Source: Desulfuromonadales bacterium
GTDB taxonomy: Bacteria; Desulfobacterota; Desulfuromonadia; Desulfuromonadales; BM103
Direction: 5' to 3'
DNA length: 32,128 nt
NCBI GenBank assembly: GCA_040882925.1
Contig: JBFLJZ010000350.1
Coordinates: forward strand, 1-32,128
The notes under the pieces are model-generated. The model saw only the letters and a list, made by a program, of their open reading frames with translations, was not told the DNA's origin and searched no databases. Made by a program: the position numbers and the translations under genes. How positions within the stretch are numbered: position 1 is the stretch's first letter; each line of letters begins with the position of its first letter. This document shows, piece after piece, positions 10,987 to 32,022 of this stretch.

Positions 10987-11136
10987 TAATACTGAGAAGC
11001 ACTCAACATTAACAACTTTAATTTACTGAAAAACAAAGCAGTCGCTAGACCCGCTGAGCCTGCCTCTGCCATTTCTCATATAGAATTGTTCCGATGTTTA
11101 TCATGAAATACTTGTTATTTGCTTTATAAACCGTCC

Positions 11137-12515: not shown

Positions 12516-12532
12516 TGTCTTAAGATGGTCGA

Positions 12533-14080: not shown

Positions 14081-14092
14081 GTCATCCTCCGT

Positions 14093-15184: not shown

Positions 15185-15218
15185 TAACAGTCTCCGATAA
15201 GTTTTCGTTATTAATATA

Positions 15219-16616: not shown

Positions 16617-17792
16617 TCATTGCTTGATTTCGGCAAATGACTGCAGAAGATAATTGATCTGGTCGGATGTGTGAGCGGCACTGACGCTACACCGCAACAG
16701 GCTCATTCCGGCCGGCGCGGCAGGGGGGAAAACCAGATTGACATAGATCCCCTTGTCGAGCAGCGCGTTCCACGCGAGCAAGGTCATTTCCCTGGACGGC
16801 ATCCTGATGGCGACAACCGGGCTGAGATCGGGCCCGAGTTCGAAACCCAGGTCTTTGAGACCACCATAGAGCAGTGATGCGTTATTCCATAGCCTGGTGC
16901 GCAATTCGGGTTTTGCCTGTATGACCTGCAATGCCTGACGCACGGAAGCGGTCGTCGACGGGGATGGCGACGCCGTGAACACGTAGGAGCGACAGACGTA
17001 GCGCACCAGATCCAGTTCCGCGTGGTTGCTGACGCAATAGCCGCCGATCGAGCCGAGACTTTTGCTGAAAGTGCCGATGATGAAGTCGACGTCCTGCTCG
17101 ACGCCGACCGCCTCGGCCATGCCGCGTCCGGTGTCGCCCATCACGCCCATGGAGTGAGCTTCATCCACTAGCAGCCAGGCGCCGTATTTCCTTTTCAGGG
17201 CTGCGATCTCGGCCAGGGGAGCGCAATCACCAAGCATACTGTAAATGCCCTCGGCGATAATCAGGGTTTTCTCGGCCTTCGCGCCAAGCCGCTTGAGCTT
17301 CTTCTCGAGATCATCGACTGAGTTATGACGAAAACGGATCATCTCGGCACCGCTCATCTTGCAAGCGTCGTAAATGCTGGCGTGGGAGTCAGCGTCCAGA
17401 ACAATGACATCGCCGGGTCCGGCCAGGGTGGAAATCACGCCAAGGTTGGCAACGAATCCGGTCGAGAAGACGATGGCATCGCTGCAGTCGTAGAAACTGG
17501 CCAGGTCTCGTTCCAGGTCACGATGCCCGGCGAAGGTGCCATTGGCCATACGCGAGCCGGTTGTGCCTGTCCCGTCCTTCTCCAGGCTGGACCGGGCGGC
17601 CTGGATGCACTGCGGATCGAAGGTCAGGCCAAGGTAGTTGTTGGTCCCGGCCAGAAGCACGCGCTGCCCGTTGATTGACGCTTCGGTCGGGGAATAGATT
17701 TCATCGATGACGACGTTGAAAGGGTCGACTCCGTCCGGGAGCAGGGTTTTTCGTGTTTCTGCAATCGTGTTCAGTTTGTCAAGAAGTCCCAT
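16617..17792 (-). CDS. spt: PLP-dependent alpha-oxoamine synthase, serine palmitoyltransferase-like
   Basis: BioF/KBL/SPT family: GTNNYLGL, VDEAHSMG and the PLP-lysine motif GTFSKSLGSIGG. The start codon overlaps the ACP stop (TAATG at 17790-17794). Amino-acid substrate specificity cannot be read from the sequence. Confidence 0.75.
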   Translation of the reverse strand: MGLLDKLNTIAETRKTLLPDGVDPFNVVIDEIYSPTEASINGQRVLLAGTNNYLGLTFDPQCIQAARSSLEKDGTGTTGSRMANGTFAGHRDLERDLASFYDCSDAIVFSTGFVANLGVISTLAGPGDVIVLDADSHASIYDACKMSGAEMIRFRHNSVDDLEKKLKRLGAKAEKTLIIAEGIYSMLGDCAPLAEIAALKRKYGAWLLVDEAHSMGVMGDTGRGMAEAVGVEQDVDFIIGTFSKSLGSIGGYCVSNHAELDLVRYVCRSYVFTASPSPSTTASVRQALQVIQAKPELRTRLWNNASLLYGGLKDLGFELGPDLSPVVAIRMPSREMTLLAWNALLDKGIYVNLVFPPAAPAGMSLLRCSVSAAHTSDQINYLLQSFAEIKQ

Positions 17793-18073
17793 TAAGTCGT
17801 CTCGATAATCTCTTGGATTTTTAAAGTAAAGTCCTTGACTGTCCGTAATTCCGGGAGGCTGTTGAGCGGGTAGCTGATGTCAAAGGTGTCTTCAACGTCA
17901 TGCAGCATCTCCATGACTCTGAGCGAATCAAAGCCCAAATCGTTGACCAGTTCCGTCTCTTCGCTGATCGGTACCGGTCTTGGAGCGTATTCTTCAAGAA
18001 GCCTGATGACCTGTTTGTAGATCTCGCCGTATTGAGGGTTTGTCATGCCGGTCGAACTCCAATCTGTCAGCAT
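17792..18073 (-). CDS. Acyl carrier protein
   Basis: The phosphopantetheine attachment motif DLGFDSLRVMEM sits in a small acidic protein. A start at ATG 18046 (MTNPQYGEIY..., preceded by TGGAG) is at least as likely as 18073, which overlaps the upstream stop (ATGCTGA). Confidence 0.85.
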   Translation of the reverse strand: MLTDWSSTGMTNPQYGEIYKQVIRLLEEYAPRPVPISEETELVNDLGFDSLRVMEMLHDVEDTFDISYPLNSLPELRTVKDFTLKIQEIIETT

Positions 18074-18996
18074 CCTGACGGAAACAGGCGCTGCATTCCT
18101 TCACCGAACAGGATCCGGGGCTGCCAATCGGTTGCCTCGGTGATTGCGGTATTGTCACAGACCCAGTTCGGATGAAAAAGTTCTCTGACTTTGCCCGGTG
18201 TCAGCATCGGCCGGTAACCAATCAGGCGCGCCAGGCCTGTATTGGCGAGGGCGAACATGTGCAGCGGAGACCGAGGGATTACAAGACAGCGGGGTTTCCT
18301 GTTGTTCAGAAGGGTTGCAACCTTCACAATATCCGGCCAAGTATAGCCACCAGGGTGTCCGTCATGCAACTCAAAACAACGGTTTTTCGATGCTGGGGCC
18401 GATCTCAGCAGGCAACTGACCGCGGCAACCAGGTCGTCGACATGAATCAGTGAAAATCTGGCCTGCTTTGTTCCAATCTGCGGCACGATGCCACGCTTGA
18501 TCAGTTTCAACAGGGGTAGCATCTCGCGGTCTCCCGGTCCATAGACCGCCGGAGGACGCAGTATATCACAGGAGATCCCTATGTGGCAGTTCTCAAGGGT
18601 CTCTTCGCCTGACCTTTTGCTTGATGCATAGGCAGAGAGGGCCGGTTCGCGTGCGGCCAGGGAAGACATCAACAAAAATCGCGGGATATTCTCTGCCACA
18701 GCGGCCTTGAGCAGGTGGGTCACACCAGCCGCATTGGATGCCTCGAACTGCTGCGGCGACGCGCCGCGCACCGCCCCGGCGCAATGGACCACCGCATCAG
18801 CCCCGGCTACCAGTCCGCGCAGGCTATCGATATCATCGATGTCGCCGGGGTGCCATTGAACTGAATCCGTCGAGCCGGGAGAAGGCGTTTTCGCGGGGCG
18901 GTAGAGGGCCTTGACCAGGAAACCTTCTGCAACCAGATGCCTGAGCAGAACGGTGCCGATAAAGCCCGTTGCTCCTGTTACTGCTATTGTGAGCAC
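18067..18996 (-). CDS. NAD(P)-dependent epimerase/dehydratase-family SDR; candidate 3-keto(sphingoid/ceramide) reductase (CerR-like)
   Basis: The Rossmann motif is IAVTGATGFIGTVL and the catalytic YxxxK is YASSK. It is positioned between the FAAL and ACP/SPT genes, as in the Caulobacter crescentus sphingolipid cluster. Confidence 0.6.
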   Translation of the reverse strand: MLTIAVTGATGFIGTVLLRHLVAEGFLVKALYRPAKTPSPGSTDSVQWHPGDIDDIDSLRGLVAGADAVVHCAGAVRGASPQQFEASNAAGVTHLLKAAVAENIPRFLLMSSLAAREPALSAYASSKRSGEETLENCHIGISCDILRPPAVYGPGDREMLPLLKLIKRGIVPQIGTKQARFSLIHVDDLVAAVSCLLRSAPASKNRCFELHDGHPGGYTWPDIVKVATLLNNRKPRCLVIPRSPLHMFALANTGLARLIGYRPMLTPGKVRELFHPNWVCDNTAITEATDWQPRILFGEGMQRLFPSGC

Positions 18997-19032: not shown

Positions 19033-20853
19033 TTAGCGGGCACTGCCTGCAAAGCGTAAATCAGAGACGTCGTCACTCCCGGAATGGAGTTCTTGCGCTG
19101 CATCAAGCTGCAGAAGACTTTGCTCTGATTGGCGCTTCAGGTAATCACGGCGCGTGCCGGCACGGGACAACTTGCCAGAGGATGTGCGCGGAAGAGTGTG
19201 TGCGGAGACAAGCTCGATGGTGCAGTCGATACCAAGTTGTTGTTTTACAACCGACGCGATACGGTCAGCGAATTCACGCCTTTTGCTCTTGTCCGTTTCT
19301 CGGTATTGGACGACCATGACCGCGGTTTCAGTGCCGTCATCTGCAGGAACGGAGATCGCCGAGGCATCACCGGGCCTGACCTCCGGTTGTTGCTCGGCAA
19401 AAAACTCGAGGTCCTGTGGCCAGATGTTTCGGCCGTTGATAATGATCATGTCTTTTGCTCGACCGGTGATCACCAGGGAACCGTCAACCAGGTAACCGAT
19501 GTCCCCTGTATTCAGCCAACCATCGCTGGAAAGGACTTCTGCTGTGGCTGCAGGATCGCCAAGGTAGCCGGTCATGACACTAGGCCCACGTACGTGAATT
19601 GTCCCGCACTGCCTGTCTGGCAGAACTTTTTCGGACTCGTTCTTGATCTGAATTTCATGACCGGGCAGCGGCGGGCCGCAGTTGACCAGTTTTTTTGTGC
19701 GGAGGCCGGTTCTCGACGCAGGGTTGACCGGGAGTGCAAGTTGATGTTCCGAAAGCTGCTCGGCAGCGACCTCATCGATGACAAGCCCCTGGTCTGAGCG
19801 GGCAAAGCTCACGGCAAGCGCGCATTCAGCCATCCCGTAACTGGCGACAAAACTTTTACCGTCGAAACCAAATGGAGCCATTTTTTCCGCGAAGGCCTCC
19901 AGAACATCGGCCCGGATCGTTTCGGCGCCAACACCGGCAATCCGCCAGGCCCCAAGATCGTAAACGGTCTGATCGTCTTGACGCAGCCGACGTGTGCACA
20001 ATTCGTAACCAAAAGGTGGCGCGAAGGAAATTGTCCCACGGTTGCAGCTCATCAAGCCCAGCCACAATCGCGGCCGCATGGCGAAGTCGCGGGTCGTGAG
20101 AAAATCGACGGAAAGTTGTGAAGCCATTGGTGCCAGGACAAAGCCGATCAGTCCCATGTCATGGTAATATGGTAGCCAGGACATGCACCGGTCGCCATTG
20201 CGTACCTTCAGGCCGTCTTTAATGATGCCGGAAAGATTTTGCATGACGGCAGCCTCACTGACCATGACCCCGCGCGGGAAGCGAGTACTGCCCGACGTGT
20301 ATTGCAGATAGGCAGTTTCTGTGGATTGCAGTGGCAACAGTTCAACGTCTTGTTCCGGGAGTTGATCAAAAGTCTCTGGTTTGCCGACGAGGGCCAATCC
20401 CAGTCCCTGGGCTGCCTCACTGAGAAAGGGCATGAAATCACAAGGGGCTACCGCGACGGCTGACTGGCTCTTCTCGAGCAGACCACGTAATTGTTCAACG
20501 TAGGCCCTGTGCCCATCCAGATGAATCGAAGCTGGCAATGGCACAGGAACGTACCCGGCATATTGGCATGCAAAAAAGAAGCGTGGGAAGTCAGGATCGG
20601 TTTCTGCGATGATGGCGACCCGCGAGCCCCTGTCCAGTTGTAGGCCGCACAGGCGTTTTGCCAGTATTCGTGCTTCTCTTTGTAATTCTGCGTAGGTGAG
20701 AACGGTGCGTAGTTCGCCGCGACCGCTGTAGAAATTGAATCCGCTCTGCCCTGTGGCAGCGTAATCCAACGCGTCTGAAAGGTTGGAAAAGTCGGCTGTT
20801 CGTAGTGGGATCCTGCTCTCAGTTGGCGTTGGATGAATAGATTTCATTATCAC
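19033..20853 (-). CDS. Fatty acyl-AMP ligase / acyl-ACP synthetase (adenylate-forming enzyme)
   Basis: AMP-binding motifs are LQYTSGSTRFPRGV, GYGMAE-like YGMAECA, GWLNTGDIGY and SSGKLSR. The N-terminus resembles FAAL enzymes. The ORF-track start is GTG at 20853, and the ATG two codons downstream (20847, MKSIHPT...) is equally plausible. Confidence 0.85.
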   Translation of the reverse strand: MIMKSIHPTPTESRIPLRTADFSNLSDALDYAATGQSGFNFYSGRGELRTVLTYAELQREARILAKRLCGLQLDRGSRVAIIAETDPDFPRFFFACQYAGYVPVPLPASIHLDGHRAYVEQLRGLLEKSQSAVAVAPCDFMPFLSEAAQGLGLALVGKPETFDQLPEQDVELLPLQSTETAYLQYTSGSTRFPRGVMVSEAAVMQNLSGIIKDGLKVRNGDRCMSWLPYYHDMGLIGFVLAPMASQLSVDFLTTRDFAMRPRLWLGLMSCNRGTISFAPPFGYELCTRRLRQDDQTVYDLGAWRIAGVGAETIRADVLEAFAEKMAPFGFDGKSFVASYGMAECALAVSFARSDQGLVIDEVAAEQLSEHQLALPVNPASRTGLRTKKLVNCGPPLPGHEIQIKNESEKVLPDRQCGTIHVRGPSVMTGYLGDPAATAEVLSSDGWLNTGDIGYLVDGSLVITGRAKDMIIINGRNIWPQDLEFFAEQQPEVRPGDASAISVPADDGTETAVMVVQYRETDKSKRREFADRIASVVKQQLGIDCTIELVSAHTLPRTSSGKLSRAGTRRDYLKRQSEQSLLQLDAAQELHSGSDDVSDLRFAGSAR

Positions 20854-21112: not shown

Positions 21113-21562
21113 TCAACTTGCCTCAGTGGAAATACAGCACAATGCATCTTTTAAGGTTTTTTTTATCTGTTGTTTCAGATGATCACCGACATTGTTGTCT
21201 TGACCCAGATCAGGTGGGCCGGGCCAACCTGGGTCAGCAAACTCTGTTTCGCCAAACAATCGTACAGCGGAATACCTCGGCAGGATATGGAAGTGCACGT
21301 CAGGGTCAACCATCATCAGCATCAGGTAATTAATCTTGTCATAGGTGAAACAACTTTTGAGACCGGACTCTAATGCAGTGGTTATCTCTTTTAACTCGGC
21401 AAACGCCTCGACGCTAACAGCCGACAGCGCATCGGCGTCTTCCTTGCAAATCAGCACGAGAGCACCAAGAGTGACCTGTTGCGGACGCAATAATACGACC
21501 CAATAATCATATTCCCTGACCAGGGATTCCGGGTAACCGAATTTTGCCATGGTTGCATTCAT
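21113..21562 (-). CDS. HIT-superfamily nucleotide hydrolase/transferase-like protein
   Basis: The histidine-triad region is MVDPDVHFHILPRY. The ATG at 21562 is preceded by AAGGAGGG at good spacing. The longer ORF-track version (to 21898) adds 112 low-complexity residues overlapping the divergent gene and is rejected. Confidence 0.65.
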   Translation of the reverse strand: MNATMAKFGYPESLVREYDYWVVLLRPQQVTLGALVLICKEDADALSAVSVEAFAELKEITTALESGLKSCFTYDKINYLMLMMVDPDVHFHILPRYSAVRLFGETEFADPGWPGPPDLGQDNNVGDHLKQQIKKTLKDALCCISTEAS

Positions 21563-21797
21563 TGATACAGCCCTCCTTTGTCTGTTCCCCGTTTCAATCG
21601 AACGAGGGGTTGGCTGGTGGAGCCTTTTTTGTCTACCCCCCTTACATGCTAGCGGACTATCGAGTATTATCAATTCGCAGAGACCGCAAAATAACCGAAA
21701 TCGGGCAAACCGTTTGAACCATTCAGTACATTTACAGAAAGAAAAAGAAAGGCAGTGCATCGAACCGCTAAAAATTGTCCCGGTTGCAGGCCGCCGC

Positions 21798-22895
21798 ATG
21801 ACCGCTCGATTCATTGAGATACCATGGTCCCTGTATGCCGCCGATCCCTGCTGGGTGCCGCCTTTGCTCGTAGAGAGGAAATGGCATCTTTCCGCCAAAA
21901 ATCCTTACTTCGAACATGCTGAATTCCAGGCATGGATCGCCTGGCGCGGTAACCGGATGGTCGGGCGCATCAGTGCACAGGTCGACCAGTTGCACTTGCA
22001 GCAACACAACGATGCAACTGGTTTTTTCGGTTTCCTGGAAGCAGAAGACAGTGCGGAGACTTTCCATGCCCTGTTTGTTGCTGCTGAAGAGTGGCTGCGG
22101 CAAAAAGGCATGCGGCAGGCTCGCGGCCCGTTCAGCCTGTCAATCAACGATGAATGCGGATTGCTGGTCGATGGTTTTGATAGTCCGCCACCGATCATGC
22201 TGGGCCATGCCCTGCCGTATTACGGCAAGCGCGTTGAAGAGCAGGGTTATGTCAAGGAGCAGGACCTGCTTGCGTACCGGGTGGATTCGAACCTTGCTCA
22301 CCAGCCGCATCTGGAACTCCTAAGCAAGAGGTACTCGCAGCGCATCAAGGTCCGCAAGATGAGAAAGGGTTGTTTCGCAGTGGAACTGGAAATTATCCGC
22401 GACCTTTTCACCGATGCCTGGTCAGAAAACTGGGGCTTTATTCCTTTTACCCAGGCCGAATTTGCCGAACTGGGTAAAAATCTCAAATTTCTCGTAGATT
22501 CCGAGTGGATCAGGATCGCCGAAGTTGACGGCGAGCCGGTGGCGATGATGGTCATGTTTCCCAATATCAACGAGATGATCAAAGATTTAAATGGCCGTCT
22601 GCTGCCGTTCGGCTGGTTGAAGCTGCTCTGGCGGCTGAAAGTCTCCGGCGCCAGGTCATCGAGAGTCCCCTTGATGGGAGTCAGGCGCCAACACCAGGGG
22701 ACAATGATGGGGGCAGCTTTGGCCCTGATGACGATCGACCCGATTCATCAGCATGCCCGCAAGAAAGGGGTCACTGAAGTGGATATGTCGTGGATTCTCG
22801 AGCAGAACAAGGGCATGCGAAAAATTATCGAACTACTGGGCGGCAATGTTTACAAACGGTACCGGATCTATGAGAAAGATTTGGCGGCAGGATGA
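21798..22895 (+). CDS. Large (about 365 aa) GNAT-type N-acyltransferase; candidate bacterial ceramide synthase
   Basis: The conserved N-terminus is FIEIPWSLYAADPCWVPPLL and the C-terminal GNAT core is GVRRQHQGTMMGAALAL...ILEQNKGMRKIIELLGG. Start is taken at the first plausible ATG (21798). The true start may lie a few codons upstream at a non-ATG codon. The stop overlaps the next gene start (ATGA at 22892-22895). Confidence 0.55.
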   Translation: MTARFIEIPWSLYAADPCWVPPLLVERKWHLSAKNPYFEHAEFQAWIAWRGNRMVGRISAQVDQLHLQQHNDATGFFGFLEAEDSAETFHALFVAAEEWLRQKGMRQARGPFSLSINDECGLLVDGFDSPPPIMLGHALPYYGKRVEEQGYVKEQDLLAYRVDSNLAHQPHLELLSKRYSQRIKVRKMRKGCFAVELEIIRDLFTDAWSENWGFIPFTQAEFAELGKNLKFLVDSEWIRIAEVDGEPVAMMVMFPNINEMIKDLNGRLLPFGWLKLLWRLKVSGARSSRVPLMGVRRQHQGTMMGAALALMTIDPIHQHARKKGVTEVDMSWILEQNKGMRKIIELLGGNVYKRYRIYEKDLAAG

Positions 22896-23704
22896 AACAA
22901 ACCAAACCCTACTCAGCAATTATCCTGGCTGCAGACCGTGATCTGGAAGACCCGGTGGCACAGTCGGCAGCGGTAAGCTGCAAGGCGCTGACTCAGGTCC
23001 TTGGTCGTGAGATGGTATTGCGGGTCCTCGACGCCCTGGCAGAAGCAGATCAGATAGACAAACGTTTGCTGGCCGGCCCGCCAATCGTTGCTGTCGAACA
23101 GAATCCGGAGCTCTCCGGGCTGGTTAATTCCGGCCGGGTCAAGTGGTTCGCACCGGAGGATACGCCGAGTACCAGCGCATTGAATGTTTTGCAGTCGCTG
23201 CCTGATGATATCCCGGTGCTGGTCACCACGGCCGATCATGCTTTGTTGACTGCCGAGATGATCGACCACTTCTGCAGCGAGGCGCGAACCAGCGGTTGCG
23301 ATGTTCTGGCCGGTGTTGCAGAATACGAACTGATTGCAGAGGTTGTCCCCGGTACCCGGCGAACCGTTACGCAACTCAAAGACGGTGGCTATTGCGGCTG
23401 CAACCTGTTTGCTTTCCTGACGCCGCAATCTCGCAAAGCCGCCGATTTCTGGCGTAAAGTGGAAAGAGAGCGCAAAAAGCCCTTGCGCATTATCAAGGTC
23501 ATGGGGTGGTTGGCGGTCATCCGTTATCTGCTCGGCCGGTTGTCCCTGGAACAGGCCTTGGCCGGGCTGTCGCAAAGAATGGGCTTGCGGGTGGGCGCTG
23601 TCCGGATGCCTTTTGCCGAAGCGGCGATCGATGTCGACAAGGTCGAGGATTTATTCCTGGTCGAATCGATCCTGACTGAAAGACAGAAGAGGGCATCCTC
23701 ATAA
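22892..23704 (+). CDS. MobA-like nucleotidyltransferase-fold protein with atypical N-terminal loop
   Basis: NTP_transf_3-like layout: AIILAADRD...CKALTQVLGREMVLRVLDAL and VLVTTADHALL. The usual glycine-rich loop (LAGGxGxR) reads LAADRDLED here. Confidence 0.55.
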   Translation: MKQTKPYSAIILAADRDLEDPVAQSAAVSCKALTQVLGREMVLRVLDALAEADQIDKRLLAGPPIVAVEQNPELSGLVNSGRVKWFAPEDTPSTSALNVLQSLPDDIPVLVTTADHALLTAEMIDHFCSEARTSGCDVLAGVAEYELIAEVVPGTRRTVTQLKDGGYCGCNLFAFLTPQSRKAADFWRKVERERKKPLRIIKVMGWLAVIRYLLGRLSLEQALAGLSQRMGLRVGAVRMPFAEAAIDVDKVEDLFLVESILTERQKRASS

Positions 23705-23877: not shown

Positions 23878-24321
23878 ATGAATAAGGAAAGAGTAGGCTA
23901 CACAACCGGTGTTTTCGATTTGTTTCATGTCGGGCACCTGAGGTTGTTGCAAAGAGCAAAAAGCAGGTGTGATCGACTTATTGTCGGCGTCAGTACCGAT
24001 GATCTGGTACAGTCGTATAAAAACAAAAGGCCCGTCATTCCATTTGAAGAAAGGATTGAGATCGTCGCTGCCTTGAAATGTGTCGACGACGTCATCCCCC
24101 AGACTCACAGGGATAAAATTGCCGCATACCATGAAATCAAATTTGACGTCATGTTTGTCGGCAGTGACTGGAAGGGGTCTGATCTGTTCAACAAGGTCGA
24201 GGCTGAACTGGCCGGATTTGGTGTGGATGTCATCTATTTCGAATACACCAATAATGTCTCTTCGACCGCTTTGCAGTCGACGCTTCAAGCGATCTATGAC
24301 GCGGAGGCTGCTGCAGGATAA
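23878..24321 (+). CDS. Cytidylyltransferase-family protein (TagD / glycerol-3-phosphate cytidylyltransferase-like)
   Basis: GYTTGVFDLFHVGHLRLLQRAK carries the HxGH motif. Size is 147 aa, and the C-terminal nucleotide-binding motif region is VSSTALQ. Confidence 0.8.
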   Translation: MNKERVGYTTGVFDLFHVGHLRLLQRAKSRCDRLIVGVSTDDLVQSYKNKRPVIPFEERIEIVAALKCVDDVIPQTHRDKIAAYHEIKFDVMFVGSDWKGSDLFNKVEAELAGFGVDVIYFEYTNNVSSTALQSTLQAIYDAEAAAG

Positions 24322-24388: not shown

Positions 24389-25459
24389 TTGCTCATCAAC
24401 CGCTATTTGAACCGTGAGATACTGAACCCGCTGGTGACCATCTGCATCATCCTGGTCATTATCTTTGCCGGTTATTCTGCGACCCGCTACCTTCCCGATG
24501 CTGCCGATGGCATGATGACGGGGAATACCGTCTTCGCTCTTGTCTTCCTCAAGATTTTAATCGCCCTGGAAGTTTTGATTCCCGTCACACTTTTTCTTTC
24601 CGTGATAACGGTGCTCGGCCGCTTGCATGCTGAATCGGAAATCATCGCATTACAGGCTAGCGGGTTGTGCGAGCGCACCCTGGTGATCTCGGTTTTACAA
24701 CTCTCCTTTTTCGTAGCCCTTCTGGTTGCTGCGCTCTCCCTTTATGTGCGGCCCTGGGCCTATGAAAAAAGCTACTGGCTGAAAGCTGACGCCGAGGCGA
24801 ATTTTGATTTCTCCCGGCTCAAGCCAGGGCGTTTCCACGAGATTGGCGAGGACAAATATGTCGTCTTCCTGGACAGCATCCATGCCAGCCAGAAGCGAGC
24901 AGAAGGCGTTTTCATCGAACAGCGCAACGAGTCGCTGCGCAAGATAATCCGTGCCAAACAAGCCTGGCAAGAGATCGACCCGGCAACCGGGGAGAAGAGT
25001 GTCGTTCTGCACGATGGCTATCAATACGAGCTCGGAACGGCCGTCGGTAAAACCAGCCTGTTCAGGTTTCAGACTTTCCGACTGATTTTAACTCCCAAGG
25101 AAATTGAGTCGATCGGCTATCGGCGCAAGGCAGCAACAACAATGAGCCTTGCCGTTTCGTCCGTGCCAGAAGACAAGGCGGAATTTCAATGGCGGTTGTC
25201 GACGGGGTTCTCCACGATTCTTCTTGGATTACTCGGGATTCCTTTAAGCCGCACGGCACCGAGGAGAGGCAAGTCAGCCAACATTTTCATGGGTGTGATT
25301 ATCTTTGCCATTTACTACAATATGACTGCGATGGCCAAGACCTGGATGGAGCAAGCGGTGGTCGGCTCTTTCCCGGGGATATGGTGGCCCCATGTTCTGC
25401 TTGCTGTCTTGCTGATAGCCCTGCTCAAGCCTTTTGGCCACGGCTTTCCATCACACTGA
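24389..25459 (+). CDS. lptF: LPS export ABC permease LptF (YjgP/YjgQ family)
   Basis: The N-terminus (TTG)LINRYLNREILNPLV is typical of the family. There are three TM segments, a large periplasmic domain, then three C-terminal TM segments. TTG start at 24389. Confidence 0.75.
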   Translation: MLINRYLNREILNPLVTICIILVIIFAGYSATRYLPDAADGMMTGNTVFALVFLKILIALEVLIPVTLFLSVITVLGRLHAESEIIALQASGLCERTLVISVLQLSFFVALLVAALSLYVRPWAYEKSYWLKADAEANFDFSRLKPGRFHEIGEDKYVVFLDSIHASQKRAEGVFIEQRNESLRKIIRAKQAWQEIDPATGEKSVVLHDGYQYELGTAVGKTSLFRFQTFRLILTPKEIESIGYRRKAATTMSLAVSSVPEDKAEFQWRLSTGFSTILLGLLGIPLSRTAPRRGKSANIFMGVIIFAIYYNMTAMAKTWMEQAVVGSFPGIWWPHVLLAVLLIALLKPFGHGFPSH

Positions 25460-25494: not shown

Positions 25495-26562
25495 ATGAAA
25501 ATGCTCGCGCGCTATATCACTGTTCGGCTGGCGTTTGGCTGGCTGCTGGTATTCCTGATTATGACCACATTGTTCTCGTTTCTCGAACTGGTCGGTCAGC
25601 TTGATGATATCGGCGAAGGCAGCTACCAGGCAAAAGATGCTTTCATGTACGTGCTCTACACCCTTCCCGGGCGTGCCCTTGGCCTGGCGGCAGTCAGTTC
25701 CTTGCTGGGCGGGATTGTCGGCCTAGGCACCCTGGCAAACACCGATGAGCTGCTGGCAATGCGCTCTTGCGGTTTTTCCGTGTTTCGTATCGCAGGCGTG
25801 CTGCTGGGTGCCGGCAGCGTGATTATGCTGAGCGTGCTTGTGCTGGCCCAGTTTGTCGTGCCGCCGCTTGAACAGAAGGCCAAGATCAACCGTGAACTGG
25901 CTCTGTCTGGGGAAGGCTCGCTGCTCTCATCAGGCGGTTTCTGGACGCGGGGCAACAACAGGTTTATCAATGTACGCTCTTCGGATTCGGCTGTCGGTTT
26001 GGCCGATGTCAGCATTTATGATTTTGATGACCAAGGCAAACCGACCAGCTATATCGGTGCGATTCGTACCGAGATCGGCAAAGACGGACAGTGGGTCGGG
26101 CATGATGTCAGACAGGTCATTTTTGCCGACAAAAGCATCACGGACCAGGTTGAGCCATCTCTGGCTCTCGACGTTTTCCTCAACACCAGGCAGACCGATA
26201 TCCTGAGTATCACACCGGCAATGCTCGCCCTGGATGAGCTGTACCAGTATATTCAGGTTTTGCAAAACAGGGGTCAGAACACCGACCAATTCGTTTTGGC
26301 CTTATGGCAGAAGATGACCCTGCCGTTCAAGGTGGGTGCAATGCTATTTTTCTCGTTACCCTTTGTCTTCGGTGCGGCGCGTGAGGCGAACCCCGGTCGA
26401 AGAGTCACGCTCGGGGCCATCGTCGGCATCTCTTACTACTATTTCGATCAGGCCCTTGGCTACACGGGGCTTCTGCTCGGCATCCATGCTGCATTCACGA
26501 CTCTTTTGCCTCTCGCAATCATCGTTTTGATCGCCTTCTGGCTGTTGTTCAGGGTGCCTTAG
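25495..26562 (+). CDS. lptG: LPS export ABC permease LptG (YjgP/YjgQ family)
   Basis: It begins MKMLARYITVRLAFGWLLV and has the same 3 TM + periplasmic domain + 3 TM architecture. It lies immediately downstream of lptF. Confidence 0.75.
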   Translation: MKMLARYITVRLAFGWLLVFLIMTTLFSFLELVGQLDDIGEGSYQAKDAFMYVLYTLPGRALGLAAVSSLLGGIVGLGTLANTDELLAMRSCGFSVFRIAGVLLGAGSVIMLSVLVLAQFVVPPLEQKAKINRELALSGEGSLLSSGGFWTRGNNRFINVRSSDSAVGLADVSIYDFDDQGKPTSYIGAIRTEIGKDGQWVGHDVRQVIFADKSITDQVEPSLALDVFLNTRQTDILSITPAMLALDELYQYIQVLQNRGQNTDQFVLALWQKMTLPFKVGAMLFFSLPFVFGAAREANPGRRVTLGAIVGISYYYFDQALGYTGLLLGIHAAFTTLLPLAIIVLIAFWLLFRVP

Positions 26563-26581
26563 ACAATATCTACCCAGATGG

Positions 26582-27610
26582 TCAGGTGCGCGGCAGCACC
26601 AGGCTTGTTGCCTGATCTTCCTCAAAGCGTCCAGATTTTTCTGAATAGCTCCTGACACGCATCGTCAATTGCCGATTTTCGCCATTTTGCTTGAGCATAT
26701 ACAGGTTGTAGCTGGCACAACGTCTCGCATGCGGATTCAGTTCCGAAGCGGATGGCGCGCCAACCACAGGGATATTTCCGACAGGCGTCCAAACCTCGGT
26801 ATATGTCGGGGCATGCGTATGTCCGTGCAGCACCAGTTCTGCGCCGTATCGGCCAATGAGCTCGGTCAATGCGCTGCTGTTATCAAGCCGCTTGCGCCAT
26901 TTTATGCTGCCCGGAACCGGCGGGTGATGGACCAGTATGACTCTTAGCAAGCCAGCATCGCCGGTTGTTTGCAGAAGCTTTGCAAATGTGTCCAGCTGCT
27001 TTTGATCAAGACTGCCGACGGCAAGAAAAGGGAGGCTGGGTCGCGCCGAGCAAAGGCCAAGCAGGGCGATCGGACCGCGAATGCGCAGACTGGGGAAAAA
27101 TCCTGTTTTGTGGCGATTTTCCCTCTCATTATCGGATTTTAGGTAAGCCGCCCACACCGAGAGTTGATCGGCCCAGTCCTGACCGACATAGGCTTCATGG
27201 TTGCCCGGAATCACGGTGACTTGGTCCGGTGGCCCCAGCTGTGACAGCCATTGAGCGGCTTCGGCAAACTCGTCGGGCAGACCGAGATGAGTCAGGTCGC
27301 CGGTCACGGCAATATGATCAGGCCGGGTTGTTTTGAGGTCCTCGAGTAAGGCTTCGACGATCTCGGATCGGTGGACAAAACGACGCTTGCGCCACCATGA
27401 CAGGTAGCCCAGCATGCGCTTGTTGAGCAGTGGGCTGATTGCCGTATTGTTGAGGGAAGTCAGGTGAAGATCTGAAAGATGTGCTAAGCAAAAGTTACCA
27501 GGTCGTGTCAACTGGGTTGATCCAGTGTTATTCTCTGTCGTGAGTGACGCTTTCTCTGTCTTTACATCCACCATGAGGGGAGTATATAGTAGCGACCTTG
27601 TTTTTTCCAC
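26582..27610 (-). CDS. Calcineurin-like metallophosphoesterase
   Basis: The full motif set is present: LSDLHL (DxH), VTGDLTH (GDxxD), PGNHE (GNHE), ILVHHPP and LHGHTH. The start is uncertain: GTG at 27610 or ATG at 27574. Confidence 0.8.
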   Translation of the reverse strand: MEKTRSLLYTPLMVDVKTEKASLTTENNTGSTQLTRPGNFCLAHLSDLHLTSLNNTAISPLLNKRMLGYLSWWRKRRFVHRSEIVEALLEDLKTTRPDHIAVTGDLTHLGLPDEFAEAAQWLSQLGPPDQVTVIPGNHEAYVGQDWADQLSVWAAYLKSDNERENRHKTGFFPSLRIRGPIALLGLCSARPSLPFLAVGSLDQKQLDTFAKLLQTTGDAGLLRVILVHHPPVPGSIKWRKRLDNSSALTELIGRYGAELVLHGHTHAPTYTEVWTPVGNIPVVGAPSASELNPHARRCASYNLYMLKQNGENRQLTMRVRSYSEKSGRFEEDQATSLVLPRT

Positions 27611-27686
27611 TGGGGATTATGTCGCTAGCGATCATTAGATAGGCTCGATTCAGTTTCTGAAGTCTTCAAAAAAACAACACACCGAG

Positions 27687-28904
27687 TTGACGACTATGCC
27701 AATCCATCTACGAATAATTCAGGAAAGCCCAGTCCAATTGTGGGGGCTATCCTCTCGTGAGCGCCTTGAGCGCATGCTAAACAAAGAGGGCATCTCCATC
27801 AACCATTATGATGGCACATGCCCTGTTCATAAAGAAGATACTGTCCTGCTTCTGCGAGGCGATTATCTCTACGATCAACGTATTATCATCAACATGATAG
27901 AAACGGTCGGGATCATTCTTGAAACTAGCTCCAATCAAAACCCACAGCCGGTCGCTGCATATGTAAATGGTGACAAGGCTAATGCTGTAGAGACGATCAT
28001 CACTGAAGGTCGCTCTGATGATTATCCGGACGGCTTGCGCCCAGAGTCTGCCGAGAGCCTGGTTCCTGTATACCAAAAAAAACTGCGTAAAATTGATCCG
28101 CCGTACCTCTTGCCGATCTCTGAAAATAACCGGCGGAATTTGGAAAAACGGCTCTTTGACGGTTCTTATAAAGGTGTGACCGACCTGGTGACCAAGTGGC
28201 TCTGGCCGGTACCAGCACAATGGGTCACCGGGTTGTGTGCTCGAAACGGCATCACCCCGAACCATGTTACCAGTATGAGCCTGGTCCTTTCCGTTTTGGC
28301 CCTCTTTCAGTTTTACGAGGGTGCTTATGCCTGGGGGTTGATCTCTGCATGGTTGATGACTTTTCTGGATACGGTAGACGGCAAATTGGCCAGAGTTACG
28401 ATCAATTATAGCCCCTTCGGGAACATCTTTGATCACGGTATCGACCTCATCTTCCCACCACTCTGGTATATCGCTTGGGGGATGAGCTTGCATTCAGTCA
28501 ATACGGAAATCATCGGTATTTCAGTGCCATGGATACTCTGGTTAACTGTAATAGGTTATATTGCAGGCAGGCTCTGTGAGGGAATCTTTAAGCGTTTCCT
28601 GGAATCTTCAGGTATATTTTGTTGGCAACCTATTGACTCCTGTTTCAGGCTGATCACCGGACGACGAAATCCGAACCTGGTCCTTTTTACCTTTTTCCTT
28701 CTCTTTGGACATCCCGACCTTGGTCTCTTTGCCGTCTGTATGTGGACCGTCCTCTCAAGTATGTTTCTAATACACCGGCTGATAAGAGGCTTCCAGTATC
28801 GCAATCAATCAGGTCCATTGCGTTCATGGTTCCTTGATGTCGACCCTTCTGATGAATCACTGACGTTCTTTCAGAGATGGTTCTGCCGCCGCCCTCAGGC
28901 CTGA
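27687..28904 (+). CDS. CDP-alcohol phosphatidyltransferase-family membrane protein with an N-terminal soluble (degenerate nucleotidyltransferase-like) extension
   Basis: DTVDGKLARVTINYSPFGNIFDHGID matches D(x)2DG(x)2AR(x)8G(x)3D(x)3D exactly. Multiple TM helices lie downstream, and about 170 soluble residues lie upstream. The start is TTG at 27687 or, perhaps more likely, ATG at 27696 (MPIHLRII...). Confidence 0.85.
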   Translation: MTTMPIHLRIIQESPVQLWGLSSRERLERMLNKEGISINHYDGTCPVHKEDTVLLLRGDYLYDQRIIINMIETVGIILETSSNQNPQPVAAYVNGDKANAVETIITEGRSDDYPDGLRPESAESLVPVYQKKLRKIDPPYLLPISENNRRNLEKRLFDGSYKGVTDLVTKWLWPVPAQWVTGLCARNGITPNHVTSMSLVLSVLALFQFYEGAYAWGLISAWLMTFLDTVDGKLARVTINYSPFGNIFDHGIDLIFPPLWYIAWGMSLHSVNTEIIGISVPWILWLTVIGYIAGRLCEGIFKRFLESSGIFCWQPIDSCFRLITGRRNPNLVLFTFFLLFGHPDLGLFAVCMWTVLSSMFLIHRLIRGFQYRNQSGPLRSWFLDVDPSDESLTFFQRWFCRRPQA

Positions 28905-29917
28905 ACGTTATGAACAATCTCGACAATCGCCCCCTCGGGCAAGCCGGTGATGACTACAACAATGGCCGATGCCTTAAGGTGGGTGTCCTGACCAACCCGC
29001 TGAGCGGCGGCAACAAGAAGGAGGGCAGGGCGATCTGCCGGCTCCTCAAAGACTGGCCTGATGTCATACATCGCGAAGCATCCGAGCCTGAAAGCTTCCT
29101 CCAGGCTCTTGCCGATTTCTCAGGCAATGGCGTCGAACTGCTGGTTGTCAACGGTGGAGATGGGACGGTCCAGGCGATTCTGACAATTCTCGGCAATGAA
29201 AAAAAAATTGCGCGGCCACCGCTGCTATCGCTGTTGTGTGCCGGGACAACCAGCATGCTGCCGAGAGATGTTGGTGTGGACGGTTCTCCCGTCGTGGCCC
29301 TGCAACGCATCCTGAATTGGTCGAAATCGACGAACAAGGATCTTGTCGTTCAGTCACGGTCGATATTGCGGGTCCAGAGAGATTCGGACACCCTCTACGG
29401 CATGTTTTTCGGTGCCGGGGCAATCTGCGAAGGCATCAGGATCTTCCATAGCAAGGACAACCCCATGGGTTGGCGCGGTCAACTGATGCCGACGTTAACC
29501 ATCTTGCGCCTGCTGCTGGCAATATTGTGCAACAGGGTTCCGCCTTTCATCAACAGCACCCGAATCAATGACGGCAGAGACGAAAAACGGGCCGATCTTT
29601 TTGTCCTCACCAGCACCCTTGACCGACTATTCCTCGGCATGCGCCCGTACTGGGGGACCGAAAACGGTCCGTTGCGCTACACGGCGGTAAAGACGAAACC
29701 GAAATACTTGTTGAGGGTTTTATTCTCACTGTTTGGCTCCGGTCGCTGCCGGCTTGCGACACCGGCAAATGGATATTCCAGTCACAACGTCGAAGAAGTG
29801 CAGCTGGACATGGAGGGGGATTTCACCCTCGATGGTGAACTGTACACCAAAGGCAAGCAGCCGATTACGATATCTTCAGCCGGTCCGGCACGGTTTGTTT
29901 GTTCAAGTCGATTCTGA
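28877..29917 (+). CDS. Diacylglycerol-kinase-family lipid kinase (candidate ceramide/DAG kinase)
   Basis: DAGK_cat motifs are VLTNPLSGGNK, VVNGGDGTVQAIL and LCAGTTSMLPRDVG. The start is either ATG 28877 (overlapping the upstream gene by 28 nt) or ATG 28910 (5 nt after its stop). Confidence 0.8.
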   Translation: MVLPPPSGLNVMNNLDNRPLGQAGDDYNNGRCLKVGVLTNPLSGGNKKEGRAICRLLKDWPDVIHREASEPESFLQALADFSGNGVELLVVNGGDGTVQAILTILGNEKKIARPPLLSLLCAGTTSMLPRDVGVDGSPVVALQRILNWSKSTNKDLVVQSRSILRVQRDSDTLYGMFFGAGAICEGIRIFHSKDNPMGWRGQLMPTLTILRLLLAILCNRVPPFINSTRINDGRDEKRADLFVLTSTLDRLFLGMRPYWGTENGPLRYTAVKTKPKYLLRVLFSLFGSGRCRLATPANGYSSHNVEEVQLDMEGDFTLDGELYTKGKQPITISSAGPARFVCSSRF

Positions 29918-29936
29918 AGCTTTATGCTAAAAACCT

Positions 29937-30905
29937 ATGAATAACATGTATAAAGAAAACTATGAAAAAATCATAGAATTGATTGGATCGCAGCCGGAAC
30001 AGGACTTGCCAGCCGGCATCATTGCCCTGGCTGACGCAGCTCGTGAACGGCACGGCGAGTCTGTTCGCGCGGTGCTTTTTTACGGCTCCTGTCTACGGTC
30101 GGGTAATCTGTCTGAGGGCCTTGCCGATCTTTACATTTTGGTGGATGACTATAAATCGGCATTCAATAGTCGCATCCCGGCTTTTTTCAACAAACTGCTG
30201 CCACCCAACGTCTTTTACCTGGAAATCCCGGTTGAAAATCATGTGCTGCGTGCCAAATATGCCGTCCTGACGGTGGCAGACTTTCGCAAGGGCACGAAGC
30301 ATTGGTTCCATTCCTATCTGTGGGGCAGATTCGCCCAAAAAACCGGCATAATCTACGTTTGTGATGGAGATGTTCAAGACCAGGTATTAGCAGCTTTGGC
30401 CTGTGCTGTCATGAGATTTGCATCTCAAACACTGCCACAGATGGATGCAAGGTTTTCTGCACGCGACCTTTGGCTGAGAGGCCTTGCCCTCAGTTATCGC
30501 TCGGAATTGCGTACCGAAGATCCGGAGAGGGCCGCAGAACGTTTGTTTGACGCCAATCCGGCGTACTATCGGGCGTTGACCCGGCTCGCTCTTGAAGCAT
30601 TGCCTTTAAAGGTAAATGCCAATGAAGACTCAGAGACTTATTGCTACCCTGTTGAGCTATCGGGGACAGCCAGGCGTTTAAATGTTTGGGGCTGGCGCGC
30701 AAGACTCCTGCAGGGCAAGGTCCTTTCGCTTCTGAGGCTTTTGAAAGGGTTTTTCACTTTTGAAGGCGGCATAGACTACATTCTTTGGAAAATAGAAAGA
30801 CACTCTGGCGTCCGTGTAGAAGTCGGGGCAACTTTGCGACGTTTTCCGCCGATTGCTATGGTCGTTATCTTTTGGCGCTTGTATCGTCAGGATGCTTTTC
30901 GTTAA
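29937..30905 (+). CDS. Tam41/Mmp37-like nucleotidyltransferase (mitochondrial-type phosphatidate cytidylyltransferase family), tentative
   Basis: This pattern recalls Tam41: VLFYGSCLRSG...LADLYILVDDY...VFYLEIPV...LRAKYAVLTVADFRKGTKHWFHSYLWGRFAQKTGIIYV. In Tam41 the equivalent is YGSGVF...D.I..V...YFNP.V...IKYGV....L..DL..W..LY.AGR..KPV. This is recognised from memory, not searched. Confidence 0.45.
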   Translation: MNNMYKENYEKIIELIGSQPEQDLPAGIIALADAARERHGESVRAVLFYGSCLRSGNLSEGLADLYILVDDYKSAFNSRIPAFFNKLLPPNVFYLEIPVENHVLRAKYAVLTVADFRKGTKHWFHSYLWGRFAQKTGIIYVCDGDVQDQVLAALACAVMRFASQTLPQMDARFSARDLWLRGLALSYRSELRTEDPERAAERLFDANPAYYRALTRLALEALPLKVNANEDSETYCYPVELSGTARRLNVWGWRARLLQGKVLSLLRLLKGFFTFEGGIDYILWKIERHSGVRVEVGATLRRFPPIAMVVIFWRLYRQDAFR

Positions 30906-31176
30906 TCTCTTCCGCTAATCACAGGCACAATCAGTAGGGTTCTATGATGTGAAAAATCCCCTGCGCCAGCTTGCTAACGCATTTCAGTTTTAGCCAAATA
31001 GCGTAGGTCAGAGACAATTAACAGTCTCCTGTAAGCACAGCGCTTGTCGATCAATATTGCAGCGGCACACTTCTGCTTCATCATAGTACCAAAATTGGTC
31101 TCGATATAGACCGCAGAAATGTCTAAGTATCTGATTATTTGTGGTTTTTAAAAGTTCTCCGATTGAAATATTTATT

Positions 31177-31192
31177 TGGCTTGTTTTCTGCT
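31177..31192 (+). promoter_or_regulatory. Possible sigma-54 -24/-12 promoter upstream of the REC-PilZ gene
   Basis: TGGCTT-GTTTT-CTGCT has exact GG-N10-GC spacing and lies 48 nt upstream of the ATG at 31240. It is a weaker match than the site at 20889-20904. Confidence 0.35.
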
Positions 31193-31239
31193 TTCTAGTC
31201 TCGTAAACAAAGCCCTCATTTACCTTTAAGGATGAACAT

Positions 31240-32022
31240 ATGAAAGAGAGTCAGAACTTAAAATCCACGTTCGGCCTGACAAGGCCTGCGGTGTCATTCA
31301 AAGAGACCAAAAGGAAAATACTTTTGGTTGACGATGTAAGTTTGTTTATAGAACTTGAAAAGACATTTCTGCAACGCAAGGAAGTCTTCGAAATCCTTTC
31401 TGCCAAGAGTGGTGAAGAGGCCCTCAAGATCATCGAAGCTGAACGTCCTGACCTTATTTACATGGACCTGTATATGCCGGGGATGGATGGCGATGAATGC
31501 TGCCGGCTGATAAAGGCGTCAGAGAACGGCAAGCATATACCGATCGTAATGGTTACATCTGCTGGTGGCGAAGAGGACAAGTCCCGCTGTATCGATGCAG
31601 GTTGCGACGGTGTCATTACCAAGCCGATCAAACGGACCATGTTTCTGTCTTTTGCCAAAAAGTACCTCGATGTTAACGAACGGAAGGAGCCCAGATACGC
31701 TTCGCATATTAAAATTAAGTTCGGCGAGCAGAGGGACATGCTGCTGACCGATTACACGGTCAATATCAATACCGGCGGTATATTTGTATCATCGACCAAA
31801 CTCTTTCCAGTCGGCACACATCTTTTCCTTGAATTCAGTTTACCCAAGATTGACAAAGTCGTCTCTTGCCGAACCCGGGTCGCCTGGGTCAATGAAGGGG
31901 TGCCACCCTTAAAACGTGATCTTCCTGTCGGTATGGGTCTGGGCTTCGTCGGGATCAGCCTGAATGAAATGAATGTGATACGGGAATATATCAAGAGCAA
32001 TGATCTCGCCGCGGACTGGTAG
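31240..32022 (+). CDS. Response-regulator receiver domain fused to a PilZ (c-di-GMP-binding) domain
   Basis: The REC domain has KILLVDDV, the phospho-acceptor region DLIYMDLYMPGMDG, and VMVTSA...KPI. The C-terminal PilZ motifs are RKEPRY (RxxxR) and DYTVNINTGGIFV (D/NxSxxG-like). GGATGA lies upstream of the ATG. Confidence 0.8.
   Translation: MKESQNLKSTFGLTRPAVSFKETKRKILLVDDVSLFIELEKTFLQRKEVFEILSAKSGEEALKIIEAERPDLIYMDLYMPGMDGDECCRLIKASENGKHIPIVMVTSAGGEEDKSRCIDAGCDGVITKPIKRTMFLSFAKKYLDVNERKEPRYASHIKIKFGEQRDMLLTDYTVNINTGGIFVSSTKLFPVGTHLFLEFSLPKIDKVVSCRTRVAWVNEGVPPLKRDLPVGMGLGFVGISLNEMNVIREYIKSNDLAADW

Follow-up and report, generated by a model that had tools for sequence, protein, structure and literature searches.

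A three-gene operon of the cpgABC type

The DNA analysed here is a stretch of 32,128 nt from a Desulfuromonadales bacterium (GCA_040882925.1, contig JBFLJZ010000350.1), hereafter called the window. At positions 27687-30905 it carries an operon of three open reading frames (ORFs), whose products are a cytidine diphosphate (CDP)-alcohol phosphotransferase, a lipid kinase and a protein with the predicted fold and the motifs of Tam41. Very probably, they represent the form that the cpgABC module of Caulobacter crescentus takes in Desulfuromonadales. The operon type is already known and is not a new kind of system; what the window adds is a possibly meaningful variant in a neighbouring cytidylyltransferase gene. 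The three genes are as follows.

27696-28904, + strand: ORF1, CpgA-like CDP-alcohol phosphotransferase, 402 aa (405 aa from a TTG start at 27687)
28910-29917, + strand: ORF2, CpgB-like lipid (putative ceramide) kinase of the diacylglycerol kinase (DAGK) fold, 335 aa (346 aa from a start at 28877)
29937-30905, + strand: ORF3, CpgC-like nucleotidyltransferase (NTase) of the Tam41 fold, candidate CTP:ceramide-1-phosphate cytidylyltransferase, 322 aa

A previous annotation made from the letters alone (the sequence-only reading) had described three tightly linked plus-strand genes, and both its coordinates and its junctions were reproduced. ORF1 and ORF2 overlap by 28 nt or are separated by 5 nt, depending on whether ORF2 starts at 28877 or 28910, and ORF2 and ORF3 are separated by 19 nt. 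ORF1 likely starts with the ATG at 27696, since two other assemblies were annotated with an identical product of 402 aa. For ORF2, homology to relatives starts only at 28952, and its start stays at either 28877 or 28910. When we scanned 26500-31300 for promoters and terminators, promoter-like sites were not above the level of shuffled sequence; the operon is accordingly deduced from gene spacing and synteny. The minus-strand ORFs lying within the three genes (e.g. 27777-28493) had no support and were disregarded.

Judged by their conservation, the three are real genes and not chance ORFs, since ORF3 had 2289 database homologues and relatives in the genomes of at least 583 species. Its family comprised 1207 cluster representatives (50% identity, E ≤ 1e-3). 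Of the relatives with a name, those nearest to ORF1 and ORF3 were found in metagenome-assembled genomes (MAGs) of Desulfuromusa (64-72% identity), in a Desulfuromonadales MAG and in Geobacter benzoatilyticus (58%).

The transferase and the kinase

The Pfam cut-offs used were 22 bits for CDP-OH_P_transf (PF01066), 23.6 bits for DAGK_cat and 24 bits for Tam41_Mmp37 (PF09139). ORF1 matched PF01066 with 42.5 bits over residues 190-289. It carries at residue 228 the segment DTVDGKLARVTINYSPFGNIFDHGID, an exact instance of the D-x2-DG-x2-AR-x8-G-x3-D-x3-D motif that the sequence-only reading had recognised. The protein begins with a cytoplasmic domain of about 150 aa, in which Pfam did not detect a nucleotidyltransferase motif, and continues with a transmembrane catalytic domain. 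Its AlphaFold2 model (pLDDT 82) had AF2299 of Archaeoglobus as the best Foldseek match (E = 1.6e-11, TM 0.58/0.68) over the whole length, and it also matched the bifunctional IPCT-DIPPS. Structures of PIPS and PgsA were among the matches as well. According to the molecule names, the PIPS entries aligned to ORF1 in full length because they were crystallised as fusions to the AF2299 domain. We therefore assign the modelled fold to the AF2299/IPCT-DIPPS type. ORF1 shares with these Archaeoglobus fulgidus proteins the catalytic motif and the cytoplasmic N-terminal domain, but it is only 11-17% identical to them and its acceptor is presumably a sphingolipid.

The donor of DIPPS is CDP-inositol, a soluble CDP-alcohol. 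Another CDP-alcohol phosphotransferase, the ceramide phosphoethanolamine synthase CPES of Drosophila, uses CDP-ethanolamine and ceramide, although it is eukaryotic, sits in the Golgi lumen and works without a kinase or a Tam41 partner. CPES, which we liken to ORF1 by motif only, is a precedent for a soluble CDP-alcohol donor with a sphingolipid acceptor. Such a pairing would fit the cytidylyltransferase gene of the window described below.

ORF2 matched DAGK_cat with 44.6 bits. Both kinase motifs expected from the earlier annotation, NPxSG and GGDGT, are present (NPLSG at residue 40, GGDGT at residue 93), and the CxxxCxxC motif of eukaryotic ceramide kinases was not found in the protein. The GGDG ATP-binding motif and the lack of CxxxCxxC are reported traits of CpgB (PMC10331486), so that ORF2 is CpgB-like by motif. 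There is one moderately hydrophobic segment (residues 192-214), as described for the Caulobacter counterpart CC_1160 (PMC11324152). A sequence search of ORF2 against the PDB gave no match at E ≤ 0.01.

ORF3 and the Tam41 fold

ORF3 had been proposed to resemble Tam41/Mmp37, a family of CDP-diacylglycerol synthases known from mitochondria and Firmicutes. Three of the four patterns on which that proposal was based are present, namely YGS (residue 49), DLYILVDD (64) and KYAVL (107); the spacing of the fourth had been given slightly wrongly and is really W-x3-Y-x-WGR-x3-K (WFHSYLWGRFAQK). The match to PF09139 reached only 21.6 bits (E = 1.5e-4), and no NCBIfam model was matched. Among 56 diverse members of the family, 11 matched PF09139 at E ≤ 1e-3 and no other Pfam family was matched; the relative P0128 scored 34.3 bits.

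Searches against solved structures were more informative. With the single sequence, the only PDB entries at E < 10 were two of Schizosaccharomyces pombe Tam41 (E = 0.007). A profile of 40 homologues placed Tam41 (6IG2) first at E = 3e-5 and reached the Firmicutes Tam41 (7ECD) at E = 0.53. The sequence-only reading had called for a comparison of the predicted structure with the Tam41 crystal structure. When the AlphaFold2 model built on the 40-homologue alignment (mean pLDDT 83, pTM 0.83) was compared with the PDB by Foldseek, the top five matches were all Tam41 (6IG4, 6IG2 and 7ECD), with E = 3e-9 to 2e-8 and TM 0.48-0.59. Aminoglycoside nucleotidyltransferases came next as a family, at E = 4.7e-5 and TM of about 0.3.

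The predicted fold, an NTase domain with a winged helix, is accompanied by shared motifs. HMMER paired KYAV, YLWGRFAQK and LSYRSELR of ORF3 with KYGV, YLAGRFQK and LSYLGDIR of S. pombe Tam41, which gives the common patterns KY[AG]V, Y-x-x-GRF-x-(x)-K (YLxGRFxK) and SY-x2-[DE]-x-R. In the 56 members, Y49, G50, D64, P90, V92, K107, R131, Q134, E190, R192, E194, Y281 and K285 were invariant. In this alignment, D64 was the sole invariant carboxylate of the G[GS]...D-x-[DE] motif that is classical for NTases. Conservation of only one of the three canonical carboxylates is also a reported peculiarity of Tam41, and the invariant K107, R131 and R192 may correspond to its conserved basic residues for CTP. 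The last 82 residues of ORF3 are basic (15 K/R against 5 D/E) and helical, with no transmembrane segment, and resemble the basic amphipathic membrane anchor of Tam41.

The Tam41 resemblance thus stands at the level of predicted fold and motifs, although identity to solved Tam41 proteins is only 17-19% and the Pfam score is below the cut-off. We take the ORF3 family, from its sequences, as a bacterial branch that has diverged within the Tam41 superfamily. Because its profile reached 7ECD only at E = 0.53, it appears to be a subfamily separate from the Firmicutes Tam41. The fold and motifs make CDP-ceramide chemically plausible as a product, as the sequence-only reading had suggested. Unlike for Tam41, the genomic and genetic context of ORF3 points to ceramide-1-phosphate and not phosphatidic acid as the lipid substrate.

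Correspondence with Caulobacter

In C. crescentus, cpgA-cpgB-cpgC correspond to CCNA_01217-01219, i.e. CC_1159-1161. Loss of CCNA_01217 (cpgA), which encodes a PgsA-type domain, removes only ceramide-diphosphoglycerate (CPG2). Loss of the kinase CCNA_01218 (cpgB) removes ceramide phosphate, ceramide-phosphoglycerate (CPG) and CPG2. Loss of CCNA_01219 (cpgC), reported as lacking a conserved domain, removes CPG and CPG2 while ceramide phosphate accumulates (Zik et al. 2022, PMC9393093). The order of steps proposed for the window, a kinase and then the Tam41-like protein, agrees with these phenotypes. CpgB was shown biochemically, with kinetics, to be a ceramide kinase (Dhakephalkar et al., PMC10331486), and CC_1160 phosphorylates diacylglycerol (DAG) as well as ceramide (PMC11324152). 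The anionic phospho-sphingolipids enable Caulobacter to survive without lipid A and are its target for colistin and polymyxin (PMC9393093).

Other work completes this picture. The product of CpgD (CCNA_01210) is CDP-glycerate, which has been proposed as the donor that CpgA uses, and the ΔcpgA and ΔcpgD mutants each lose only the second phosphoglycerate (PMC12275187). CC_1161 and its homologues from the alpha-, beta-, gamma- and delta- classes of proteobacteria carry the Tam41 domain IPR015222, and a ceramide activated with a nucleoside diphosphate (NDP) has already been proposed for CC_1161 with its Tam41/CDP-DAG-synthase domain (Olea-Ozuna et al. 2024, PMC11324152). The route to an activated ceramide, which the earlier annotation had considered undescribed, is consequently on record as a hypothesis. 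The same paper described the N-terminal cytoplasmic domain of CC_1159, the phosphoesterase CC_1158, the HIT protein CC_1157, the LptF/G paralogues CC_1156/1155, which are needed for sphingolipid transport in Caulobacter, and the CofC-like CC_1153. Literature searches on 'CDP-ceramide' or 'CpgC' returned nothing beyond the Caulobacter papers, and one on Geobacter sphingolipids returned nothing relevant.

The window operon has the order of cpgABC, i.e. a transferase with an N-terminal cytoplasmic domain, a kinase and a Tam41-domain protein of about 320 aa. This order was also found in two relatives (L001 and L082), in L083 and in most of the 80 genome loci described below. A cpg-like block was present in G. 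benzoatilyticus (CP071382) and in alphaproteobacterial, gammaproteobacterial, Nitrospirales, Desulfobacterales and Calditrichota genomes. L083 is the G. benzoatilyticus locus, with its Tam41-like gene at 12227-13174.

The surrounding sphingolipid locus

Together with its neighbours, the operon matches Caulobacter CC_1152-CC_1165 in content and order almost throughout. The neighbours include a metallophosphoesterase, LptF/G, a CofC-like NTase, a HIT protein, bCerS, serine palmitoyltransferase (SPT), acyl carrier protein (ACP), CerR and an acyl-ACP ligase.

26582-27610, - strand: metallophosphoesterase, divergent from ORF1, CC_1158 counterpart (Pfam Metallophos 58.2 bits)
24389-25459 and 25495-26562, + strand: LptF2/LptG2-like permease pair, candidate sphingolipid exporter (Pfam LptF_LptG 219 and 213 bits)
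23878-24321, + strand: 147-aa cytidylyltransferase of the glycerol-3-phosphate/ethanolamine-phosphate (GCT/ECT) class (Pfam CTP_transf_like 72.6 bits)
22892-23704, + strand: MobA/CofC-like NTase, CC_1153 counterpart (Pfam NTP_transf_3 40.1 bits)
21549-22895, + strand: bCerS-like (GNAT-related) ORF, 61% identical to a 393-aa Geobacter gene product
21113-21898, - strand: HIT-family protein, CC_1157 counterpart, homologous part 21134-21559 (Pfam HIT E = 6.6e-4)
19033-20853, - strand: fatty acyl-AMP/ACP ligase (FAAL; NF006624 792 bits)
18067-18996, - strand: CerR-like reductase (Pfam Epimerase)
17792-18073, - strand: ACP, 93 aa, DSL motif
16617-17792, - strand: SPT (NF047599 631 bits)

The score of the SPT is above the NCBIfam cut-off of 500 bits for NF047599, and the genes for ACP, the CerR-like reductase and FAAL lie no more than 10 kb away from the operon. 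With these genes together, the sequence identifies the window as a sphingolipid locus, the premise on which the sequence-only reading had relied. The HIT protein is 53% identical to its Geobacter counterpart. In the bCerS-like ORF the homologous part is 21741-22883, so 21549 is probably too early as a start; the ORF had no Pfam match, and its orthologues gave faint GNAT matches. The protein at 22892-23704, 55% identical to the G. benzoatilyticus neighbour, was considered as a CpgD and rejected. Its only PDB relative was TTHA0179, and it sits at the position of the CofC-like CC_1153.

Two differences from Caulobacter were found in gene content, in addition to the different lineage. The window is without a LicC-type CpgD and has the GCT/ECT-type cytidylyltransferase in its place, and a nonulosonic-acid-like sugar cassette adjoins SPT. 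The cassette (11137-16592, - strand) consists of the following genes.

11137-11844, - strand: PseF/KdsB-like CMP-sugar synthetase
11841-12515, - strand: HAD phosphatase
12533-14080, - strand: NeuB-like synthase fused to a cupin domain
14093-15184, - strand: GFO/IDH/MocA oxidoreductase
15219-16592, - strand: TIGR04396 'surface carbohydrate biosynthesis protein' (334 bits)

Judged by these families, the cassette could serve to decorate the sphingolipid or lipopolysaccharide with a group of the nonulosonic-acid type. In the relative L082, the HAD gene alone of the cassette was seen beside SPT before the fetched locus ends.

Several further features lie farther from the operon.

31240-32022, + strand: response-regulator receiver fused to PilZ, candidate cyclic di-GMP-binding regulator
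10132-10986: weakly sulfotransferase-like ORF
8661-9905: GT4 glycosyltransferase
7325-8419: PLD-like protein
5309-7060, - strand: MsbA/HepA-like ABC exporter, below all equivalog cut-offs
4513-5283, - strand: 256-aa TPR-like protein (Pfam RMD1-3 75.8 bits, cut-off 26.7)

From 7000 to 11000 the G+C content is 0.41-0.50, against about 0.55 elsewhere, and this stretch may be an island for the modification of lipids or glycans that was gained by horizontal transfer. The ABC exporter could be an inner-membrane sphingolipid flippase here; Caulobacter has instead a Wzx-like candidate flippase, CC_1166. The receiver-PilZ gene lies 335 nt downstream of the operon, past a promoter-less AT-rich spacer, and has no evident link to the lipid genes. 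It is unusual for a bacterial protein to be annotated as RMD1-3, a Pfam family named from eukaryotes. On the contig of a relative, cytochrome-c7-type genes adjoin the cluster.

A different cytidylyltransferase in this lineage

In G. benzoatilyticus and in the relative L001 the Caulobacter-like set is complete and extends to a CpgD-like gene. Among solved structures, the closest relative of the Geobacter CpgD-like protein is LicC. With this protein as a tblastn query, no such gene was found in the 32-kb window, which leaves room for a copy elsewhere in the genome. All other Geobacter cluster genes have window counterparts, and CpgD-like is the sole exception.

The corresponding site of the window, flanked by the CofC-like gene and LptF2, is taken by the 147-aa cytidylyltransferase, which belongs to a different fold class from the CpgD-like gene present there in Geobacter and L001. 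It scored 84.8 bits with TIGR01518 and 96.8 bits with rfaE_dom_II, both below the equivalog cut-offs. Its best PDB matches were an ECT (3ELB, 6e-20) and the glycerol-3-phosphate cytidylyltransferase TagD (1COZ, 6e-16). L082, whose ORF1 counterpart is 78% identical, has the 147-aa cytidylyltransferase gene too (6244-6687). No counterpart was found by tblastn in the 80 genome loci.

As read from the sequences, the swap would be either a non-orthologous replacement with CDP-glycerate still as its product, or a switch to another soluble donor and, as a consequence, to another head group. In the latter case the donor may be CDP-glycerol, CDP-ethanolamine or something similar, and this sub-lineage may have a different head group.

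Co-occurrence across genomes

The sequence-only reading had asked how often the genes accompany spt. We collected 80 genome loci around members of the Tam41-like family and sought counterparts of the window proteins by tblastn. The query of the genome scan was an alphaproteobacterial-looking subfamily of Tam41-like proteins. The taxa represented include Alphaproteobacteria, Gammaproteobacteria, Nitrospirales, Desulfobacterales, Syntrophus and Calditrichota. Caulobacter was not among the genomes returned by this single scan; Rhodospirillales, Dongia, Reyranella and others were. In a Sphingomonadales MAG (L018), the Tam41-like counterpart was 41% identical to ORF3. Unless another total is given, the counts below refer to the 45 loci with a complete 10 kb on either side (the full-flank set).

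SPT was present within 10 kb in 36 of the 45 loci, and a kinase in 40. The metallophosphoesterase occurred in 37, at the same position as in the window, the bCerS-like gene in 38 and the CofC-like NTase in 32. Of the 68 related loci in which both the kinase and the Tam41-like gene were detected, the kinase was directly upstream in 66. A CpgA-like transferase was found in 31 or 32 loci, depending on the tblastn query and the coverage cut-off. In the remaining 13 (L004, L010, L013, L035, L044, L049, L050, L059, L062, L065, L069, L078 and L079), the CDP-alcohol motif was not found in any frame within 10 kb. Most of these transferase-less loci have the kinase and the Tam41-like gene together, often beside LptF2/G2 and SPT (L078 gave no kinase match), and in the two that were inspected the LptF2/G2 genes lead straight into the kinase gene.

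The transferase and the LicC-type CpgD-like gene occurred together in 18 loci, the transferase alone in 14, the CpgD-like gene alone in none and neither in 13 (Fisher test, P = 4e-4, without correction for phylogeny). Part of the 14 transferase-only loci probably have CpgD just past the flank. This pattern agrees with the Caulobacter genetics and suggests two modules. The kinase and the Tam41-like protein would form a core, responsible for the first phospho-head group, and the transferase and a soluble cytidylyltransferase would form an extension.

Fusion proteins were also sought, with the N-terminal partner identified by Pfam and the Tam41-like part by a phmmer match. Three library proteins joined the Tam41-like domain to a DAGK kinase (P0156, 662 aa), to a CpgA-like transferase (P0262, 757 aa) and to a MobA-like NTase (P0240, 594 aa). 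Long stop-to-stop ORFs in high-GC loci were rejected as fusions; BLASTP gave only the Tam41-like domain in frame. No fusion of these three types was seen in the 80 genome loci, so we give the library proteins little weight. They support functional coupling in general, but may be rare or assembly artefacts.

Proposed mechanism and alternatives

In our proposal, ceramide is turned by the cpgABC-type module into an anionic phospho-sphingolipid destined for the outer membrane. First, the kinase would form ceramide-1-phosphate from ceramide and ATP, as shown for CpgB and, by homology and synteny, expected here. Second, the Tam41-fold enzyme, as a peripheral membrane protein, would transfer CMP from CTP onto ceramide-1-phosphate to give CDP-ceramide. 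The requirement for this protein in acting on ceramide-1-phosphate was shown genetically with Caulobacter cpgC, and the reaction itself is suggested by fold, motifs and chemistry. An acceptor alcohol or hydroxy-acid would next displace CMP to yield a first ceramide-phospho-X, perhaps by way of a housekeeping CDP-alcohol transferase. Third, the ORF1 transferase would not consume CDP-ceramide. Because of the Caulobacter genetics, the co-occurrence pattern and the fold of ORF1, it would rather extend or decorate the head group with a phospho-alcohol from a soluble CDP-alcohol. That donor would come from the small neighbouring cytidylyltransferase, which is CpgD in Caulobacter, the CpgD-like protein in Geobacter and the GCT/ECT-type enzyme in the window. 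The metallophosphoesterase and the CofC-like NTase would assist, and LptF2/G2 would export the product.

To this complete mechanism, as stated, we assign a probability of roughly 45-50%. On the model evidence, CDP-ceramide (or another NDP-ceramide) has about an even chance of being the actual product of the ORF3 family. More tentative is the combined proposal that the Tam41-like enzyme makes CDP-ceramide as part of a core in several hundred species and that the GCT/ECT swap redirects the transferase to an undescribed head group. Such a head group would be, for example, ceramide-phospho-X-phosphoglycerol or ceramide-phospho-X-phosphoethanolamine.

Several observations weigh against the proposed mechanism. 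The Pfam score of ORF3 was below the cut-off. A preprint of May 2026 termed the CpgC step 'an unidentified mechanism'. Orthology with the Caulobacter genes was judged from architecture and synteny, from the way the family continues from taxon to taxon and from the delta-proteobacterial homologues on record. The locus counts are raw, and the loci are not phylogenetically independent. CDP-ceramide, if made, would need an enzyme that resolves it, for which there is no evident candidate, least of all in the 13 loci without a nearby CDP-alcohol transferase. Finally, P0262, with a transferase and a Tam41-like domain in one chain, suits a linear pathway.

In that linear pathway, which the sequence-only reading had favoured, the kinase and the Tam41-like protein make CDP-ceramide and the adjacent transferase uses it as the donor for a head-group alcohol. 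The tight three-gene operon fits this scheme, as does the common use of CDP-lipid donors by CDP-alcohol transferases, including PIPS and PgsA among the structural matches of ORF1. Moreover, CpgD has been replaced in the lineage of the window, so the Caulobacter scheme need not hold unchanged. However, ΔcpgA of Caulobacter keeps ceramide-phosphoglycerate, and nearly a third of the full-flank loci (13 of 45) do without the transferase motif. The transferase goes together with a gene for a soluble cytidylyltransferase (18 loci against none), a soluble-type cytidylyltransferase is present in the window too, and the transferase fusion was unseen in the genome loci. Together with the AF2299/IPCT-DIPPS fold, these results speak against ORF1 as the consumer of CDP-ceramide, and we consider the linear pathway unlikely.

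Somewhat less likely still is a route without cytidylyl transfer. The Tam41-like protein might act on ceramide-1-phosphate with another nucleotide, giving ADP-, GDP- or UDP-ceramide, or together with the CofC-like NTase and the phosphoesterase, with no CDP-ceramide formed. The published proposal deliberately spoke of an 'NDP-activated' ceramide, loci that lack the transferase still have the CofC-like NTase and the metallophosphoesterase beside the core, and P0240 fuses a MobA-like NTase to the Tam41-like domain. Against this, both solved Tam41 enzymes bind CTP, and the GRF-x-x-K and SY-x2-[DE]-x-R motifs common to Tam41 are conserved in the family.

It is very improbable that the Tam41-like protein is a CdsA-independent CDP-DAG synthase working with a DAG kinase towards a glycerophospholipid. 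In favour of this reading, which the sequence-only reading had named as the conservative alternative, the Firmicutes Tam41 makes CDP-DAG in vitro and CC_1160 accepts DAG; against it, the Caulobacter cpgB and cpgC deletions specifically alter ceramide phosphate and ceramide-phosphoglycerate, SPT is close by in most full-flank loci and the family profile sets it apart from the Firmicutes Tam41.

Meaning for the CpgC family

Among the head-group steps of Caulobacter, the one on which the window bears is the chemistry of CpgC, a question that has already been posed by specialists. The present analysis places CpgC in a family with a predicted Tam41 fold, found in hundreds of genomes of several phyla, almost always with a kinase and usually with SPT. 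It offers a concrete, model-based mechanism, in which CTP and ceramide-1-phosphate would give CDP-ceramide, and the pattern of core and extension constrains which enzyme is paired with which substrate. As the family is present in cultivable Geobacter, a system for testing is available. For annotation, the name of sphingolipid head-group genes can be given to trios now labelled 'hypothetical protein / PgsA / DAG kinase'. If the proposal is true, CDP-ceramide would be the first sphingolipid liponucleotide, and the kinase and the cytidylyltransferase would form a core that is sufficient in itself, spread over many phyla and at least several hundred species.

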